A stretch of DNA of 64,000 nucleotides, taken from assembly GCA_963817895.1 (NCBI GenBank), contig CAWFQB010000012.1:1-64000 (forward strand), read 5' to 3'. This DNA is from an uncultured Chthonomonadaceae bacterium. GTDB lineage: Bacteria; Armatimonadota; Chthonomonadetes; Chthonomonadales; Chthonomonadaceae. This document shows, piece by piece, positions 10,601 through 19,600 of the stretch. Position 1 is the stretch's first letter; every line of letters begins with the position of its first letter. Made by a program: the position numbers.

Positions 10601-13600
10601 GCGCGATGGGCAGCATCGGCGTGGCATTAGCAGTCTTTTTTTTATCGCCGATTTACAGTGGCTATCCGCGTTATGAATTCTTCTATGCGCCTGTTTGTGG
10701 CTTGGTTGTCTGGTTGTTGTTGGGGTTTAAGGATCGGGGGGCAGGTTTGCGGCACACGGCTATTGCCGCCCTGACGGAAAACGGCGACAAGCGGCATATC
10801 GGGATATTGACAAACTGCCTGAATGACCCGAACCATGTTGTACGCCAATCTGTATCGGACGCGCTAACACAATTGCTGCCGCAAGTGCGTATAACGGATA
10901 AGGCCGCTATTTCACACACGGAGCGCATGGCCCTGCTGCGGACTGTGGATGGCGACAACCCCGATCTTGCCGTCGCGGTTCTGGCCGCAATGCGGCATAT
11001 TGGGAATGAGCAGATTCTGCGGCAGGTGGCGTATGTGATTGACAGTCCTGTCCACCATAACGCGGTGCGCGAAGCGGCCCACGAGTGCCTGCCGCATGTG
11101 AAACTGCGCGCGCGGGAAGCGCAGGAAGCGCAAGTTTTACTGCGTTGCGCGTCGAAGCAGAAGGAGGGGGAAACCTGTCTGCTGCGCCCATTGCGCGAAC
11201 AGCCCGCGCTTGACCATGAAGAACAATTGCTGTTGCCACGATAACGATAGAGAAAAGGCTTCCTGATGAGTGACTTCAAAGAGACAAATAACATTAACAA
11301 AATTCGTCCCGGCTATTCGCGCCGACGGTTCCTGACGAATGTAGGCGCAGCCGCGTTGATTGGCGGAACTGCGCTGGAAGCGCAGGCCGCGCCCGATGCG
11401 GTTCTTGCCAATGCCCGCCTGTCGGTTGGCAGGGGATTGGACTACCTGCGCCACATACAGGAGAAGGACGGCTCGTGGAGCCACTATCCGGCGATTACAT
11501 CCCTCGCTTTGTGCGCGTTTCTGCGCAACGGCAGAAACGAAGTGAACGAACCCGCTGTCGCCAAAGGGGTCCAATTCCTGTTGCGCGAGGCCAAACCCAA
11601 CGGCGCGATTTTCGACAACCGCGATCCGGCCCGCGCCCTGCCCAACTACAACACCGCGCTCTCCCTGCTCACTCTGTCGCTGACAAAAAATCCGGCCTAC
11701 AAACCAATTATTCTAAAAGCGCAAAAGTACATGGAGCAGTCGCAGTTCGATGAGACCGAGGGGATAGAAGCGTCGAACCCCGTGTACGGTGGCATCGGCT
11801 ACGGCAACGATCCCGACGACCACCCCGACCTGTCAAACCTGTCTATGGCCCTGCAATCGTTGAAAGAATCCGGCGTCCCCTACAACGCGCCCGTGTTCCA
11901 GAAGGCCATCACGTTTTTGCAGCGCGTTCAGAACCGCCGCGTCAGCAACGATCAGGCATGGGCGAAATCCGGGCCGAACGATGGCGGTTTCGCCTATGAT
12001 ACAACCGGAGAAAGCAAGGCGACGGGTTCCGGCGACCATACCTCGATGGGAGCCATGACGTATGTGGGACTGGAAAGCTACATCTACTGCGGCGTATCCA
12101 AAGACGATCCCCGCGCCAAGGCCGCGTGGGACTGGATACGCGCCAATTACACCGTCAAAGAGCATCCGGGGCAGGGCGACGTATCGCTGTACTACTACTA
12201 TCACGCGATGGCGAAAACGCTCAATGTGTACGGCCTGAAGTCGTTCAAGGACGCCAAAGGCAACACCCACGAGTGGGCGCGCGACCTTGCGGGCGCATTA
12301 ATCGCCAGACAAAAACCCGATGGCGCGTGGTTCAACACCAATTCTCGCTACTGGGAAGACCAACCCGCCCTCGTCACCAGTTACACGCTGATCGCGCTGG
12401 CGTATTGTTTAAAATAACTTTGAAATAATCCTGAAAGGTTCTTCTGAATGACCGTTCCGACTATTGCGACCAACAACTCTGTTTCTCCCGGCGTAGCGCC
12501 CTCCGCTCCTGACGATATGGCGCGTTTGCAGAAATTGCGGGATGCGTTTGATTCCATGCGCCGCGAAATCGGGCAGGTGGTTATCGGGCAGGATGCGGTT
12601 GTGGAAGAATTGCTGATGGCCGTGTTCGCGCGGGGGCATTGTATCCTCGTCGGCGTTCCCGGACTGGCGAAAACCCTGCTTGTCAGCACGGTTTCGCGCG
12701 TTCTGAACCTGTCCTACAAGCGTATTCAGTTTACGCCCGACCTGATGCCCGCCGACATTACAGGCACGGAAATCATACAGGAAGACCAGGTGACGCGGGA
12801 GCGCAAGTTCGTGTTTTTGCGCGGGCCGCTGTTCGCGAATATGATTCTGGCGGACGAAATCAACCGAACCCCGCCCAAAACGCAGGCCGCGTTGCTGGAA
12901 GCCATGCAGGAGCATAAAATCACGGTTGGCGGACAGTCGCACAAACTGGCCGAGCCGTTCTTTGTCCTCGCCACGCAAAACCCCATCGAGCAGGAAGGCA
13001 CGTATCCTCTGCCGGAAGCGCAATTAGACCGCTTCATGTTTATGATTATCGTGGGCTACCCATCGGCGGAAGAGGAAGTGGCGATTATGAAGGCCACAAC
13101 GGGCGGCATGAACGCCGAACTCCGCGCCACGCTGACGGGTGAAGACATTATCGCTTTGCAGGACATTGTGCGGCGTATTCCCGTTGGGGATCATGTTTTC
13201 CGCTACGCCGCGCAGCTTGTGCGTCAAACACGCCCCAATGAACCCGAAGCGCCCGCGTTCATCAAGGACAACATCAGTTGGGGAGCCGGTCCGCGCGCCT
13301 CGCAGTATCTCGTGTTGGGAGCCAAAGCCCGCGCCGCGCTGTACGGACGCAACTACGCCACAACCGAAGACGTTGCCGCCGTCGCCCTGCCCGTCCTGCG
13401 CCACCGCATCGTGACCAACTTCAACGCGGAAGCGGAAGGTTTGACGACAGACAAAATCGTGCAGAAATTGATTGCCTCAACCCCGCGCCCAACCGAACCC
13501 ATCCGAAAGTAACCACGTAGGGCAGGAGCGCGGGACAACAGGTATCGTCATGCAGCAACACCAACAAAGGCCGGAACGAGAAGCATATCAAGCCAATCGT

Positions 13601-16600: not shown

Positions 16601-19600
16601 GCGCTGACGCCGGAACATCTGCTGCAACTGATGCGGGAAGGGTCGCGTTTTTACAGAAAGCGCTACCGTCTGAGTTCCTGTGTCGAACGGGCTTTGGTGA
16701 TTTCGTGTTTTCCCATTGGCATGATACTGTATGCTCTCTCTGCCGATGGAGTAGTCTGGTTGGCGCTATTGATAGTGGCGTTCATCGCAATCGGCTGGCG
16801 TTTTCTGACCGTACCCTGGCGTATGTACCGCTCTCTCGTTGGCGTTCTGGAACACACCGAGGATTTGAAGCTGATTGGACCGATGATTACGATGTATGTT
16901 CGCCCGGAAGGGCTGAGATACAAGCTGGATGCGCTGGGAAATATGCTGTGCCGCCTGTTGCCGCAACTGCGTTTCGATCATGCCGGTCTGCTGACTGTCG
17001 AACAGAAGCAGGATATGCTTCGTCTGCTTCCTGTAAGTATTGGCTCTAAAGACGGGAGGTTAAACGTAAGCGCCTTAGACTTGAATATTGCCCTGCAAAC
17101 CTTGAAAGCATTGGAACAAATTGGGGATGAAAGCGCTATTCCCGCCGTGAAACGGCTAACATGGGATTCTTTCAATAATAACAAAACTGTACAGAAAGCC
17201 GCCGAGCAGTGTCTCAAACATTTGCGCTCACATCCCGGTCAGCATAAGGAGATGCAAACCCTGTTACGCGCATCCGCCGTCACAGAATCCGCCTCCGATA
17301 CTCTGCTGCGCCCTGCATCCGGCAACACCGACACCGCCCCTGAACAACTGCTGCGCCCGACAGCGCAAGGCAAAGTCGGAACCTGACAACCTAAGAACCT
17401 ATTTACCTGGACTTATGGAAACACAAACAAAACAACTGGCGGACCCGCAAACGCTGGCCCGCATCGCCAAACTGGAACTACGCGCCCGCGCCGTTGTGGA
17501 GGGCGTCATATCCGGTATGCACAAAAGCCCGCACCGTGGCAGCAGCGTGGAATTCGCGCAGCACCGCGATTATGTGCCGGGGGACGAAATACGGCATATT
17601 GACTGGAAAGTGTACGCCCGCTCGGACCGCTACCAGATCAAGCAGTACGAAGAGGAGACGAACCTCAAAGCCACGCTTGTCGTAGATACCAGTACCAGCA
17701 TGGATTACAAGGGCATCAATTCCGCCCTGTCCAAGCGCGAGTACGCCGCCATTGTCGCTGCCGCCATCGCGTCCCTGCTGATGCGGCAGCGCGACACGGT
17801 TGGCCTGACGACATTTGATGATAATATCCGAACGTTCATTCCCCCGGCAGGCACGAGCGCGCACATGAAACTGCTGTTGGAAATGCTGGAAAAGCGGGAC
17901 ACCGCGCCCAAAACCATGATCGGCAACACGTTTCACGACCTAGCCGAGCGCGTGAAACGTCGGGGAATGTTGGTTGTTCTCAGCGACCTGTTCACCGATC
18001 CTGACGAGATGTTGCGCGGCCTGCAGCACTTCCGGCACCGCAAGCATGAAGTGATTATCTTCCACGTCTTAGACCGGGATGAACTGACGTTTCCCTTCAA
18101 GGATTCCGCCGTGTTTCAGGGCATGGAGGGCGAAGAGCCGCTGATGGCTGAACCCAACGCCCTGCGCCGCGAGTACCTGAACGCTTTCGGCGCGTATGTC
18201 GAAAAACTGAAAAAAGGCTGTCGCGAACTCAATATGGACTACCAGCAGCTTGTCACCGATCAGCCCGTAGACACGTCCATCTCGCGCTATCTCTCGTCAC
18301 GTTCCAATCAAGGCAAACGATAACCTTATTAGCTATGCCACCCTTTCTAAACCCAATCTTTCTTTACGCCGTCGCGTTTGCGGGCGTGCCACTGCTTATT
18401 CACCTGATACGGCGGCGCAAACTCAAGGTCGTCCAGTGGGCAGCGATGGAGTTTTTGCGCCAGTCGCAGAAGAAGCAGCGGCGGCGGATGCGAATCGAAG
18501 AGCTGATTCTGCTCACGCTGCGGACGCTGATTGTGATACTCGCCTGTCTCGCGTTCGCGCGTCCTGTCACGCACACGCTGGGCGCAGCCCTTCTGTCACA
18601 GAATCAGCGCGTGTACGCCGTGCTTGTCGTGGACAATTCCTATAGCATGGGGCAACGGGGGCGGGACGGCAAAAGCAGTCAGGAGCGCGGCGCATACCTA
18701 TGCGTCGCAAATCCTGACCCGCATCCTCAAACCCGGCGACTCGGCCTCCCTCGTGCTGCTGTCCGACAAGCCGGAAGCGCTTATCAACTCGCCCAGTTTT
18801 GACCGCGATTCGATTTTGCGGCGTTTGCGGACGGTTGCGCTTGTGGATCGCCCGACCGATTATCTGGCAACCGCGCAGCTTGTCAACAAACTGCTGAAAG
18901 CGTCCAATGCGCCCGTGAAAGAGGTGTACTGGCTCAGTGACGATCAGGCGACCGCGTGGGCGACGAGCAAGCGCGATAGCGCGCGTCCCGTGTGGCAGGA
19001 GTTGGGCCGGCAGGCGCGGCTGACGTGGGTATCCGTTGGCGCGCCGAACGGGGAGCGGGATAACCTTGTCGTGGAAGCCCCCACTCTGAGCCGGGAACTG
19101 GTCACACCACAACTGCCCGTTCGTATCGAAGCGAAAATAGTGAATTACGGAGCAAAACCCCGCAACGATGTTCTGGTCAACCTGAAAATAGATGGCAAGC
19201 AATCCGACAGCAAGCGCGTGTCCATTGCGCCGGGCGGAAACGTCCTCGTCCGGTTCCCGCAAACGCCCTTTCTGACAACCGGAACGCGCGTCGGGCGGAT
19301 TGAACTGGCGGACGCTTCGCATGTAGACGGACTGGAGCGCGACAACGGCGCGGACTTTGTTGTCCGCTGCCGGGACAGAATCAGAGTTCTGGTACAGGAC
19401 ATGCACCCGTCCGGCGACCCGACCAAAAGCGACAGTTTTTACCTGCTGAACGCGATGGCCCCCAACGGGGCGCAGGAGAGTCTGGCCGCGAAACTGCGCG
19501 AAGGGCCGGGATTGGGCGGCGTGACCCTGCGCGACTACGACGTGGTGATTCTGACGGGCGTAAGCGGCCTGTCTACGGGAGATAAACGCGCCCTGACGGA

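Follow-up and report, generated by a model that had tools for sequence, protein, structure and literature searches.

Approximately 1% of the proteins of an uncultured Chthonomonadaceae soil bacterium and of its relatives end in a conserved tail bearing three LLR motifs, an observation that is real and stronger than when it was first noted. In our preferred reading, to which we assign a probability of roughly 45%, this tail is a disordered, cytoplasmic, tripartite docking element for one conserved and asymmetric partner. The C-terminal module of about 45 residues would present three different short linear motifs in fixed order and register, on carriers that are probably in the main inner-membrane proteins anchored through a helical hairpin. 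The cytoplasmic alpha-solenoid (HEAT-like) bodies of these carriers would diversify and duplicate quickly, and the constant tail would connect the variable bodies to a single asymmetric partner, whose three sub-sites would lie at the inner membrane face. Such a partner could be a scaffold, an enzyme or an AAA+ machine, and the mode of attachment might be likened to that of dockerins or of the C-terminal pentapeptide tether of chemoreceptors. We infer both that the tail binds a partner and that this putative partner is a single one. The earlier note spoke of a ‘recognition tag’, for which selection at the peptide level and the portability of the module both argue; as no recogniser was found, we retain ‘tag’ as a conjectural term.

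A three-motif module at the C-terminus

The source genome (G000; 7.48 Mb, 14 contigs, 81% complete) yields 42,529 six-frame ORFs of at least 60 amino acids, and gene calls were crude (longest ORFs, with overlaps removed greedily). A regular expression for the motif, required at least three times in the last 90 residues, selects 61 of these ORFs, compared with 6 for heads and 4 for reversed tails, and in 58 of the 61 the motifs are spaced 9-22 residues apart. An HMM built from the tails found in this way matches 79 ORFs in the genome at E<0.01. The module lies a median of 5 residues from the C-terminus, and within 13 residues of it in 67 of the 79. Previous counts of 56 tails, 3 heads, no reversed tails and 76 proteins by HMM, with a median distance of 5.5 residues, are borne out.

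The three motifs are non-equivalent. The first (m1) reads [QDE][TS]L[LV]R[AP]S..P, the second (m2) P[DE][TVI]LLR[PA]A and the third (m3) TPPEQL[LV]R[AP]; each has conserved flanks of its own, and the order is identical in the long and short forms of the carrier proteins. Among the 69 modules with three motifs, m1 and m2 are separated by 13-15 residues in 68 and m2 and m3 by 15-16 residues in 63, and Arg is present at all three motifs in every case. Because the register is fixed and the flanks are motif-specific, one asymmetric binding surface is favoured over three equal sites. When residues are numbered on the product of tail gene 4 (Table 1), an alignment of 38 sequences has L259, L260, R261 and R275 invariant and L273, L274, L288, L289 and R290 conserved at 90% or more, which reproduces the conserved LLR-triplet positions reported before. 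The tails are rich in A (13.5%), L (13.3%), R (9.2%), Q (8.9%), E (8.8%) and P (8.7%), and also in S and T.

Comparison of the sequences indicates that selection acts on the peptide and not on the DNA. At the invariant positions the full set of six Leu codons and six Arg codons is in use, in proportions near those of the genome as a whole. Mean pairwise identity is 78.6% in the motif columns but drops to 23.7% in the linkers, to 26.1% across the HEAT body and to 13.0% across the TM hairpin, and the DNA of the four tails described below is only 65-81% identical.

Four tail genes in a MoxR-DUF58-BatA operon

The window, by which we mean the whole 64,000-nucleotide stretch of DNA that was analysed, contains four tandem plus-strand genes at 13550-17386, each encoding three (L/V)LR(A/P) motifs at its C-terminal end (for example, QTLLRAS..DTLLRPA..PEQLLRP). 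As had been proposed, these four paralogues lie inside a MoxR-DUF58-BatA operon, between the AAA_3 and DUF58 genes and with BatA downstream. A MoxR AAA_3 domain, DUF58 and a BatA N-terminal domain (66 bits; TIGR02226 double-TM domain, 76 bits) occur here in a single gene string, as is characteristic of the Bat type, and D91, S93 and S95 of the DxSxS motif of the DUF58 protein are invariant among 29 orthologues.

Table 1. Coordinates of the tail genes, their tail modules and other features of the window
Feature	Positions	Strand	Remarks
Degenerate-tail fifth gene, HEAT plus 2-TM protein	9952..11244	+	HEAT_2 56 bits
MoxR-type AAA+ ATPase	12448..13512	+	Directly upstream of the four tail genes; AAA_3 210 bits
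Tail gene 1	13550..14506	+	Likely start Met 13550; frame open from 13472
Tail module of gene 1	14384..14503	+	aa 305-344 of the ORF from 13472; HMM envelope
Tail gene 2	14674..15555	+	293 aa
Tail module of gene 2	15439..15552	+	aa 256-293; tail HMM
Tail gene 3	15515..16456	+	Frame open from 15515; likely start Met 15572
Tail module of gene 3	16340..16450	+	aa 276-312; tail HMM
Tail gene 4	16487..17386	+	299 aa; reference for residue numbering
Tail module of gene 4	17249..17362	+	aa 255-292; tail HMM
DUF58/VWA protein	17415..18323	+	28 nt downstream of gene 4; DUF58 166 bits
BatA-like protein, two overlapping ORFs	18335..20510	+	18335-18802, N-terminal double-TM domain; 18624-20510, VWA-like
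FtsZ	30551-31852	-	C-terminal peptide compared with the LLR tail

The product of tail gene 1 is laid out as a TM hairpin (residues 118-136 and 148-166, numbered on the long ORF from 13472), a HEAT-like body and the triple-LLR tail. An AlphaFold2 model of the product of tail gene 4 gives the order N-terminal helices, TM hairpin, alpha-solenoid and disordered tail, and the products of tail genes 2 and 3 are 59% identical. The fifth gene encodes a degenerate tail (VLLRCA..CLLRPL..EQLLLPR) that scores below the threshold of the tail HMM; its product gave the single match, a weak one to HEAT-ARM_XIII (E 1.6e-6), in a PADLOC scan of 13 proteins.

Portable tails on membrane-associated bodies

After removal of the tails, BLAST sorts the bodies into components of 43 and 13 members, five small groups and 14 singletons, with an ADH-fused ORF of 892 aa included in the largest component. 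By family, 43 of the 79 proteins have the HEAT plus TM-hairpin body and about 20 the short hairpin body, and the tail is also found on Spo0M-like, ankyrin-fused, ADH-fused, HTH-like and plain hairpin proteins. The tail is thus portable across body types. However, the description of its carriers as ‘otherwise unrelated’ was overstated: varied bodies do exist, but the 43-member component leaves that phrase true of a minority only. HEAT_2 (PF13646; gathering cut-off 27.7 bits) scores 32-114 bits on other tail proteins, but remains under the cut-off on window genes 1 and 4 (19.8 and 17.6 bits) and does not match genes 2 and 3. A Foldseek search with the AlphaFold2 alpha-solenoid model returned weak matches to designed armadillo proteins (E 2e-3, TM 0.3). 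Pfam finds nothing on the tail proteins except weak HEAT matches and body domains, and no model in Pfam, NCBIfam or PADLOC, nor any report in the literature searched, describes the tail module.

At least one TM segment is predicted in 68 of the 79 proteins; 41 have exactly two, joined by a loop whose median length is 9 residues. The flanks of the hairpin are richer in K+R than the loop in 38 of these 41 two-TM proteins, and this charge bias, read by the positive-inside rule, would place the tail in the cytoplasm. AlphaFold2 predicts that the tail is intrinsically disordered: pLDDT values are mostly 87-97 in body blocks and 51-60 in the tail for the long form, and 85-95 and 54-61, respectively, for the short form, in agreement with the values given originally (bodies above 90, tails 52-61). 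The tail is not docked onto its own body in these models and forms short low-confidence helices at most.

Phyletic range and turnover

The tail is present in 53 of 401 Armatimonadota genomes, including the source genome itself. It occurs in all 32 genomes of the window's family and in 17 of 20 from a second family of the same order, which amounts to 49 of 52 genomes across 34 genera; among the 349 other genomes of the phylum there are three marginal matches (E 2e-4 to 5.5e-4). The range first given, 4 of 201 genomes and all of them Chthonomonadaceae, was too narrow, and ‘lineage-specific’ is correct in the sense of one order but not of one family. Likewise, the 1917 representatives previously reported from 1.84 billion proteins become 3004 cluster representatives (E<=1e-3) when the tail HMM is used alone. 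Genomes of the order that have no tail also lack the HEAT plus TM-hairpin body family.

The family of tail proteins turns over and expands very fast. In a genome of the same genus, the slot between MoxR and DUF58 holds a different tail gene (about 27% identical) next to a DUF58 gene whose product is 97% identical. Tandem arrays hold 29 of 78 tail genes where 3.1 would be expected, and copy number rises steeply with genome size, at a log-log slope of about 3.7 (nine genomes, for three of which the values are lower bounds).

Proposed docking and its alternatives

Neighbourhood, phyletic and structural tests identified no candidate partner; the earlier note, too, had found none by gene neighbourhood. 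Genes near the tail genes are heterogeneous in the source genome, where BLAST was used to cluster 347 neighbours and 125 carry an annotation, and equally in four low-copy genomes, with 59 annotated neighbours. The sole recurrent neighbour is an ankyrin family confined to the source genome and one close relative. These results count against docking, as does the strict spacing, which would also suit a module that folds on assembly, and the side of the membrane is a prediction. The distribution of FliM across the order does not follow that of the tail: the tail-less genomes G109, G254, G163 and G136 have it, whereas several tail-bearing ones, G087, G099 and G181 included, gave no match, and this speaks against a chemotaxis or flagellar link. 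A bolder form of the docking reading is possible, but we consider it doubtful: Chthonomonadales may have evolved a private ‘dockerin-like’ code in which the ordered tripartite LLR tail links about 1% of the proteome to a putative scaffold or AAA+ machine dedicated to it, on the inner side of the membrane. The carriers, as rapidly diversifying and super-linearly expanding membrane-hairpin alpha-solenoid proteins, would then make up a variable sensor or adaptor array with a constant output connector.

It is also conceivable, although we think it unlikely, that the tail is a degron or handle by which an AAA+ unfoldase or protease at the membrane (FtsH, ClpXP or MoxR/VWA) takes hold of these proteins for remodelling or fast turnover. 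This would be a special case of docking, because the partner would be an AAA+ machine. These membrane proteins are predicted to end, on the cytoplasmic side, in a disordered stretch longer than 20 residues, and in the window the four genes are separated by short gaps with no clear promoter or terminator between them. Furthermore, 6 of the 30 DUF58 loci examined, from five genera and two families, have tail genes packed closely between MoxR and DUF58, and a seventh locus has a frameshifted copy in the same place. However, in 12 of the 30 MoxR directly adjoins DUF58, and only one of the five MoxR paralogues of the source genome is near tail genes, most of which are located elsewhere. A DUF58 orthologue is absent at E<=1e-40 from G036 (99% complete, 29 tails) and from the tail-bearing G099, but is present in the tail-less G109, G163 and G254; this lack of co-occurrence argues against the Bat-type MoxR operon as an obligatory partner, and the absence from G036 weighs on the docking reading as well. 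In addition, 12 of the 79 tails end 17-51 residues before the C-terminus, and to our knowledge no known degron needs as many as three ordered, different motifs.

We regard as improbable the idea that the tails of paralogues bind each other or co-fold, and in this way gather the family into clusters in the membrane. On this view conservation would reflect the mutual compatibility of about 80 paralogues, which would suit the strictly fixed spacing, the extreme conservation across paralogues and the failure to find an external partner. Yet the tail is polar and rich in Pro, only two residues in every 15 being hydrophobic, the models offer short low-confidence helices at best, and the same tail is kept even in genomes with only 3-9 copies.

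Slightly less probable still is processing or modification, in which an Arg-specific protease would cut LLR-A/S/P, or the Arg, a nearby Thr/Ser or the Pro would be modified. The invariant Arg is preceded by Leu, Leu-Leu-Arg is the substrate mimic in the protease inhibitor leupeptin, and in 68% of m1 copies the residue ahead of the motif is Thr or Ser. Nevertheless, Pro is the residue after Arg in 49% of m2 copies and 33% of m3 copies, and Pro in this position blocks most Arg-specific proteases. Because T, S, V, I and Q are all found at the position ahead of the motif, there is no single conserved acceptor besides Arg, and no modifying enzyme recurs near the tail genes.

An export or sorting signal, read by sortase-like or secretion systems, is very improbable, even though a lineage-specific C-terminal tag on many proteins, in families that evolve as fast as effector families, might bring one to mind. 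The tail has no hydrophobic stretch after the LLR motifs, it is predicted to be cytoplasmic on the hairpin proteins, and NCBIfam/TIGRFAM sorting-domain models gave no match among 11 tail-bearing proteins scanned, which sets aside a sortase- or exosortase-type signal. PF03135 (VirB4) and PF05943 (TssC/VipB, the T6SS sheath) each had no match in the 81% complete source genome, so a cognate machine for a T4SS or T6SS substrate signal was not found. Finally, a functionless origin in a DNA repeat, gene conversion or recent duplication, as the many tandem paralogues could suggest, is refuted by freely varying synonymous codons and low DNA identity among tails, by retention across 34 genera, and by motif columns that are still 79% identical where bodies have fallen to 13-26%.

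Comparison with known systems

Under the docking reading, one close likeness is to the dockerin of cellulosomal enzymes, which binds the cohesins of scaffoldin. Dockerins are likewise short, conserved C-terminal modules with repeated segments at fixed spacing, carried by dozens of different proteins in one lineage and plugging into one receptor, as we propose for the LLR tail. However, a dockerin is extracellular and folds around Ca2+ with two 22-residue segments, whereas the LLR tail has three different motifs, a predicted cytoplasmic location, predicted disorder and no known cohesin-like receptor. Pfam gave no dockerin match to 24 tail proteins of the source genome, nor to 25 others drawn from the protein library and further genomes, and membership of dockerin type I/II is rejected.

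Chemoreceptors whose NWETF pentapeptide tether recruits CheR/CheB resemble the tail proteins in architecture: a hairpin in the membrane is followed by a helical body in the cytoplasm, and a flexible linker leads to a conserved peptide at the C-terminus, to which a soluble partner common to all of them is recruited. That tether is one motif at the extreme C-terminus in contrast to three ordered motifs, and Pfam finds no MCP signalling domain in the tail proteins. Sorting domains such as LPXTG, PEP-CTERM and GlyGly-CTERM also emerged from comparative genomics as C-terminal signatures that are confined to certain lineages and mark about 1% of a proteome. They combine a motif with a TM helix and a basic cluster and occur on secreted proteins that a dedicated sortase serves, but the LLR tail lacks the hydrophobic stretch and is predicted to face the cytoplasm. 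The C-terminal peptide of FtsZ, which docks onto membrane-associated partners, has a Pro-led hydrophobic-Leu-Arg core at the end of a disordered linker. This resemblance may be trivial, as the FtsZ register is P-x-F-L-R in a single copy and that of the tail P-E-Q-L-L-R. Among Bat-type MoxR operons, the embedding of the window's four genes has equals in five genera, set against the 12 loci in which MoxR abuts DUF58.

With more than 3000 protein clusters, invariant residues, a fixed register and a sharp clade boundary, the tail is a clean and tractable case, and PMC4959169 indicates that a cultured member of the family exists. Discovery of the receptor would assign a function to a large block of Armatimonadota ‘hypothetical proteins’ and could expose a new organising principle at the bacterial inner membrane. 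Sorting and scaffolding in eukaryotes characteristically rely on multivalent tails of short linear motifs that a whole class of proteins has in common; the bacterial counterparts we know of are mainly extracellular (dockerins, sorting signals) or single motifs (NWETF, the FtsZ tail).

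Conservation and anatomy of the tail

An earlier note had reported that proteins of this genome (G000) are enriched for triple Leu-Leu-Arg (LLR) patterns at their C-termini. This enrichment was borne out by a chance test in which the same pattern had to occur at least three times in the last 90 residues of 42,529 ORFs, taken from all six frames and 60 aa or longer: 61 ORF tails match, versus 6 heads and 4 reversed tails. The motifs are spaced 9-22 residues apart in 58 of the 61 positive ORFs, and a hidden Markov model built from those 58 retrieves 79 ORFs in G000 at E<0.01. Its matches lie a median of 5 residues from the C-terminus, and at most 13 residues from it in 67 of the 79. 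The residues previously listed as invariant or nearly so were recovered in an alignment of 38 long-form proteins, those with a HEAT body and a transmembrane (TM) hairpin. Mean pairwise identity in this alignment is 78.6% over the 15 motif columns, 23.7% in the linkers, 26.1% in the HEAT body, 22.2% in the N-terminal part and 13.0% in the TM hairpin.

The tail is not a DNA repeat, because all six leucine and all six arginine codons are used at the invariant positions in approximately genome-wide proportions, the four window tails are only 65-81% identical as DNA over 57 nt, and no tandem repeat of fitting period is present. Among 69 modules in which all three motifs can be placed, m1 and m2 are 13, 14 or 15 residues apart in 68, and m2 and m3 are 15 or 16 residues apart in 63. 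The motifs differ from one another and are not copies of a single unit: m1 reads [QDE][TS]-L-[LV]-R-[AP]-S-x-x-P, m2 P-[DE]-[TVI]-L-L-R-[PA]-A and m3 T-P-P-E-Q-L-[LV]-R-[AP]. An arginine is found at every motif in 69/69 modules, and the order m1-m2-m3 is identical in the long form and in the short form, a set of small TM-hairpin proteins. AlphaFold2 models computed with family alignments have confident bodies and a tail that is not docked against the body it belongs to (mean pLDDT 84.8 with tail blocks at 51-60 for the long form, and 76.8 with blocks at 54-61 for the short form). The tail is thus a clade-wide, ordered, tripartite C-terminal peptide that is selected at the protein level and predicted to be disordered.

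The proteins that carry the tail

When the 79 bodies were grouped by BLAST after removal of the tail, 43 fell into one component with N-terminal helices, a TM hairpin and a HEAT-like solenoid; this component includes an 892-aa ORF with ADH_N/ADH_zinc_N domains fused in front. The description of the carriers as otherwise unrelated therefore applies to a minority of them and fails for these 43. A second component of 13, together with several similar-looking singletons, forms the short form (140-190 aa, N-terminal KRIVSKGxY, two TM helices). A trio has an HTH-like segment, and three pairs and further singletons remain, one of them Spo0M-like. Carriers beyond G000 include long HEAT proteins, Spo0M again and one ankyrin (ANK) plus short-form fusion. 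The tail is portable between bodies.

Our own crude ORF calls and a hydropathy scan give at least one predicted TM segment in 68 of the 79 proteins and exactly two in 41, where the loop between them has a median length of 9 residues. In the two-TM proteins, the 15-residue flanks average 2.8 and 2.6 Lys plus Arg versus 1.9 in the loop, and flank values exceed those of the loop in 38/41. By the positive-inside rule, both protein ends, and hence the tail, are predicted to be cytoplasmic. The KRIVSKGxY motif is common to short-form N-termini, as seen at locus L001 and in the short-form alignment A3. In the AlphaFold2 model, its KRIVSKG part forms a small strand pairing with a PLT(R/H) element of the conserved PLT(R/H)ANT segment, which directly precedes the tail at the predicted cytoplasmic foot of the hairpin.

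Distribution, copy number and turnover

A search of 401 genomes of the phylum, in which up to 17 candidates per genome were scored, found the tail in 53, G000 included. It is present in all 32 other genomes of the same family and in 17/20 from another family in this order, and three marginal matches (E 2e-4 to 5.5e-4) were obtained among 349 genomes of other families; genomes of one order are non-independent samples. Four tail-less genomes within the order (G109, G254, G163 and G136) were also without hits when searched with the entire long-form alignment, which indicates that body and tail have been gained or lost together. With the tail profile as query, a search of 1.84 billion cluster representatives gave 3004 matches at E<=1e-3, of which 101 reach E<=1e-10; nearly all of the matches are C-terminal. 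The sole organism label on relatives is 'Chthonomonadaceae bacterium', and none of the 120 relatives listed has a functional name.

Scans of the tail proteins found no Pfam, NCBIfam or PADLOC model that covers the tail, and the ESM Atlas yielded just 'hypothetical protein' entries (Armatimonadota) and generic HEAT clusters. A tblastn search with tail gene 4 of the window found no match in phage and plasmid collections, a single-protein search of genome contigs for related loci gave no confirmed relative, and two of the alignments contain no conserved stretch of 7-10 columns. A literature search found no paper on the LLR tail. Passages on the Chthonomonas calidirosea genome describe it as disorganised and as having numerous ECF sigma factors, and do not mention the tail family (PMC4959169).

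Copy number across nine related genomes rises from 3 (G207, 3.3 Mb), 4 (G099, 3.8 Mb), 6 (G118, 4.1 Mb) and 9 (G022, 3.4 Mb) through 29 (G036, 5.1 Mb) and 39 (G145, 5.3 Mb) to at least 65 (G389, 8.0 Mb), 66 (G314, 7.0 Mb) and 68 (G261, 6.6 Mb). The log-log slope against genome size is about 3.7, which, with three counts being lower bounds, should be read simply as steeply super-linear growth. Tandem arrays hold 29 of the 78 placed tail genes of G000, versus a mean of 3.1 and a maximum of 14 in 1000 random placements. Turnover is fast in the slot between the MoxR AAA+ gene and the DUF58/VWA gene. This slot holds four tail genes in G000, one in G261 (42.5% identical to gene 1, with DUF58 87% identical) and one in G389 (sharing only about 27% identity with the window genes, with DUF58 97% identical). 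The G389 gene (L056) reads through three frames and is either a pseudogene or the product of an assembly indel error. The carriers are, in sum, membrane-anchored and fast-diversifying proteins.

The window locus and its MoxR-DUF58 context

The window comes from contig 12 of 14 of a 7.48-Mb, 81% complete genome. Gaps among its tail genes are short, and a consensus scan of the string found no excess of promoter- or terminator-like sites over shuffled sequence.

Coordinates of the window genes and of other loci discussed in the text
Feature	Sequence	Positions	Strand	Remarks
514-aa membrane protein, then 786-aa, extremely Gln/Ala/Lys/Glu-rich protein	window	3948-7922	+	DUF4175 (30.7 bits) in the first
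AT-skewed stretch	window	6000-7750		AT skew 0.56-0.72
Two Tat-signal prenyltransferase/SQHop-cyclase-like proteins	window	8047-9237, 11266-12417
Fifth HEAT + 2-TM gene	window	9952-11244		decayed tail version
MoxR AAA+ gene	window	12448-13512		5' of tail genes; AAA_3, 210 bits
Tail gene 1	window	13472/13550-14506	+	three C-terminal Leu-Leu-Arg motifs
Tail gene 2	window	14674-15555	+	three C-terminal Leu-Leu-Arg motifs
Tail gene 3	window	15515/15572-16456	+	three C-terminal Leu-Leu-Arg motifs
Tail gene 4	window	16487-17386	+	three C-terminal Leu-Leu-Arg motifs
DUF58/VWA gene	window	17415-18323		3' of tail genes; 166 bits; BatA-like gene next
BatA-like gene, two overlapping ORFs in different frames	window	18335-18802, 18624-20510	+	BatA N-terminal double-TM domain; VWA-like
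FtsZ and FtsA	window	30551-33208	-	13 kb from tail genes
Short-form gene (L001)	G000 C1	10111-10584
SelA adjoining a tail gene	G000 C3	165191-167900		also L115 (G118:C2)
FtsK near tail genes	G000 C3	674-678 kb		also L109 (G099)
ANK genes interleaved with short-form tail genes	G000 C4	38-53 kb, 646981-648368		ANK genes with N-terminal TM segment
Tail gene between DUF58 and MoxR (L056)	G389:C67	2418-3620		three frames
RHS-repeat protein, 1076 aa, and multi-TM tail protein, 470 aa (L108)	G022:C1	1977-6698		tail gene 85 nt downstream
ECF sigma gene, 561-aa protein, 496-aa tail protein (L117)	G118:C34	6284-10022	-	overlapping stop and start codons
Paralogue without tail match, upstream of L117	G118:C34	10433-11971

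Either a frameshift in the BatA-like gene or a fault in the assembly explains its split. The DUF4175 protein, the 786-aa protein (no Pfam match) and the two prenyltransferase/SQHop-cyclase-like proteins may form an upstream extension of the Bat-type cluster beyond MoxR; the AT skew is caused by the gene for the 786-aa protein. The C-terminal tail of the window FtsZ contains a hydrophobic-Leu-Arg core with a loose resemblance to the LLR motifs.

Loci of 30 DUF58 orthologues were surveyed together with 1.5 kb on either side. Six of them (G000, G261, G407, G304, G268 and G404), from five genera and from each of the two families, have tail genes immediately 5' of DUF58. One more (G389) has a frameshifted tail copy in this position, MoxR directly abuts DUF58 at 12, and neither arrangement was seen at the remaining 11. 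Such recurrence is unlikely to be due to chance because the clade has little operon structure, and it suggests that some family members cooperate with the MoxR/VWA membrane system. As a general explanation of the tail, MoxR/DUF58 is excluded: just one of five MoxR and one of three DUF58 paralogues of G000 are near tails, and tail-less genomes retain the DUF58 orthologue. Conversely, no such orthologue was detected at E<=1e-40 in G036, a genome of 99% completeness with 29 tails. A complex prediction for DUF58, Mg and residues 108-299 of gene 4 gave 0.01 relative to a mark of 0.32, and speaks neither for nor against binding.

The search for a partner

We clustered by BLAST the 347 G000 neighbours within three genes of a tail, annotated 125 from nine cluster regions with Pfam, and annotated and compared all against all 59 neighbours from four low-copy genomes. 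Neighbourhoods are heterogeneous, and ankyrin was the only recurrent family in these five genomes. ANK-like genes are enriched near G000 tails (11/67 versus 347/7616 genes overall; p=2e-4, with cases non-independent), specifically at non-HEAT tails (13/36 versus 1/42 HEAT tails). Some interleave with short-form genes, two ANK/tail pairs overlap by 4 nt, and in one protein from a metagenome (P0033) ANK is fused to a short form. Ankyrin was nevertheless rejected as a general partner: it is near tails at only 2/50 and 1/12 loci in other genomes, the enrichment is gone even within the same genus, and the ANK protein has only one close orthologue; the pattern is limited to G000 and one relative. 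ECF sigma factors were likewise rejected (1/35 near tails versus 1.6 expected), as was a flagellar link, given that the distribution of FliM does not track the tail. Foldseek with the long-form model returned weak matches to designed armadillo proteins and nothing else.

Several individual loci deserve mention. SelA (selenocysteine synthase) adjoins a tail gene in two genera, and tail genes near FtsK occur in both G099 and G000; these are probably old, positionally stable family members. At L108, a tail gene follows an RHS-repeat gene, and a paralogue is found at L107; RHS loci usually have an immunity gene at that downstream position. At L117, a tail gene is joined to an ECF sigma gene and a gene for a protein of no known family.

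A possible docking function

The most economical mechanism is that of a constant docking tail linking variable proteins to one conserved, asymmetric partner at the cytoplasmic face of the membrane, to which we assign a probability of about 0.45. A single tail peptide would bind in one register, with m1, m2 and m3 received by three sub-sites of an asymmetric surface. We infer one-register binding, rather than equal beads for a symmetric oligomer, from the non-equivalence of the motifs and their fixed order and spacing. The main sub-variant, in which the partner would be an AAA+ unfoldase or protease and the tail its handle or degron, is unlikely in this specific form. Self-association of the tails ranks lower, as a rather improbable explanation, and a role as a processing or modification site is slightly more doubtful again. 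An export signal is very improbable, given that neither T4SS nor T6SS was found in G000 at 81% completeness, and an artefact is barely credible.

If the docking reading is correct, the tail would act much as a dockerin does, or as does the pentapeptide of chemoreceptors.
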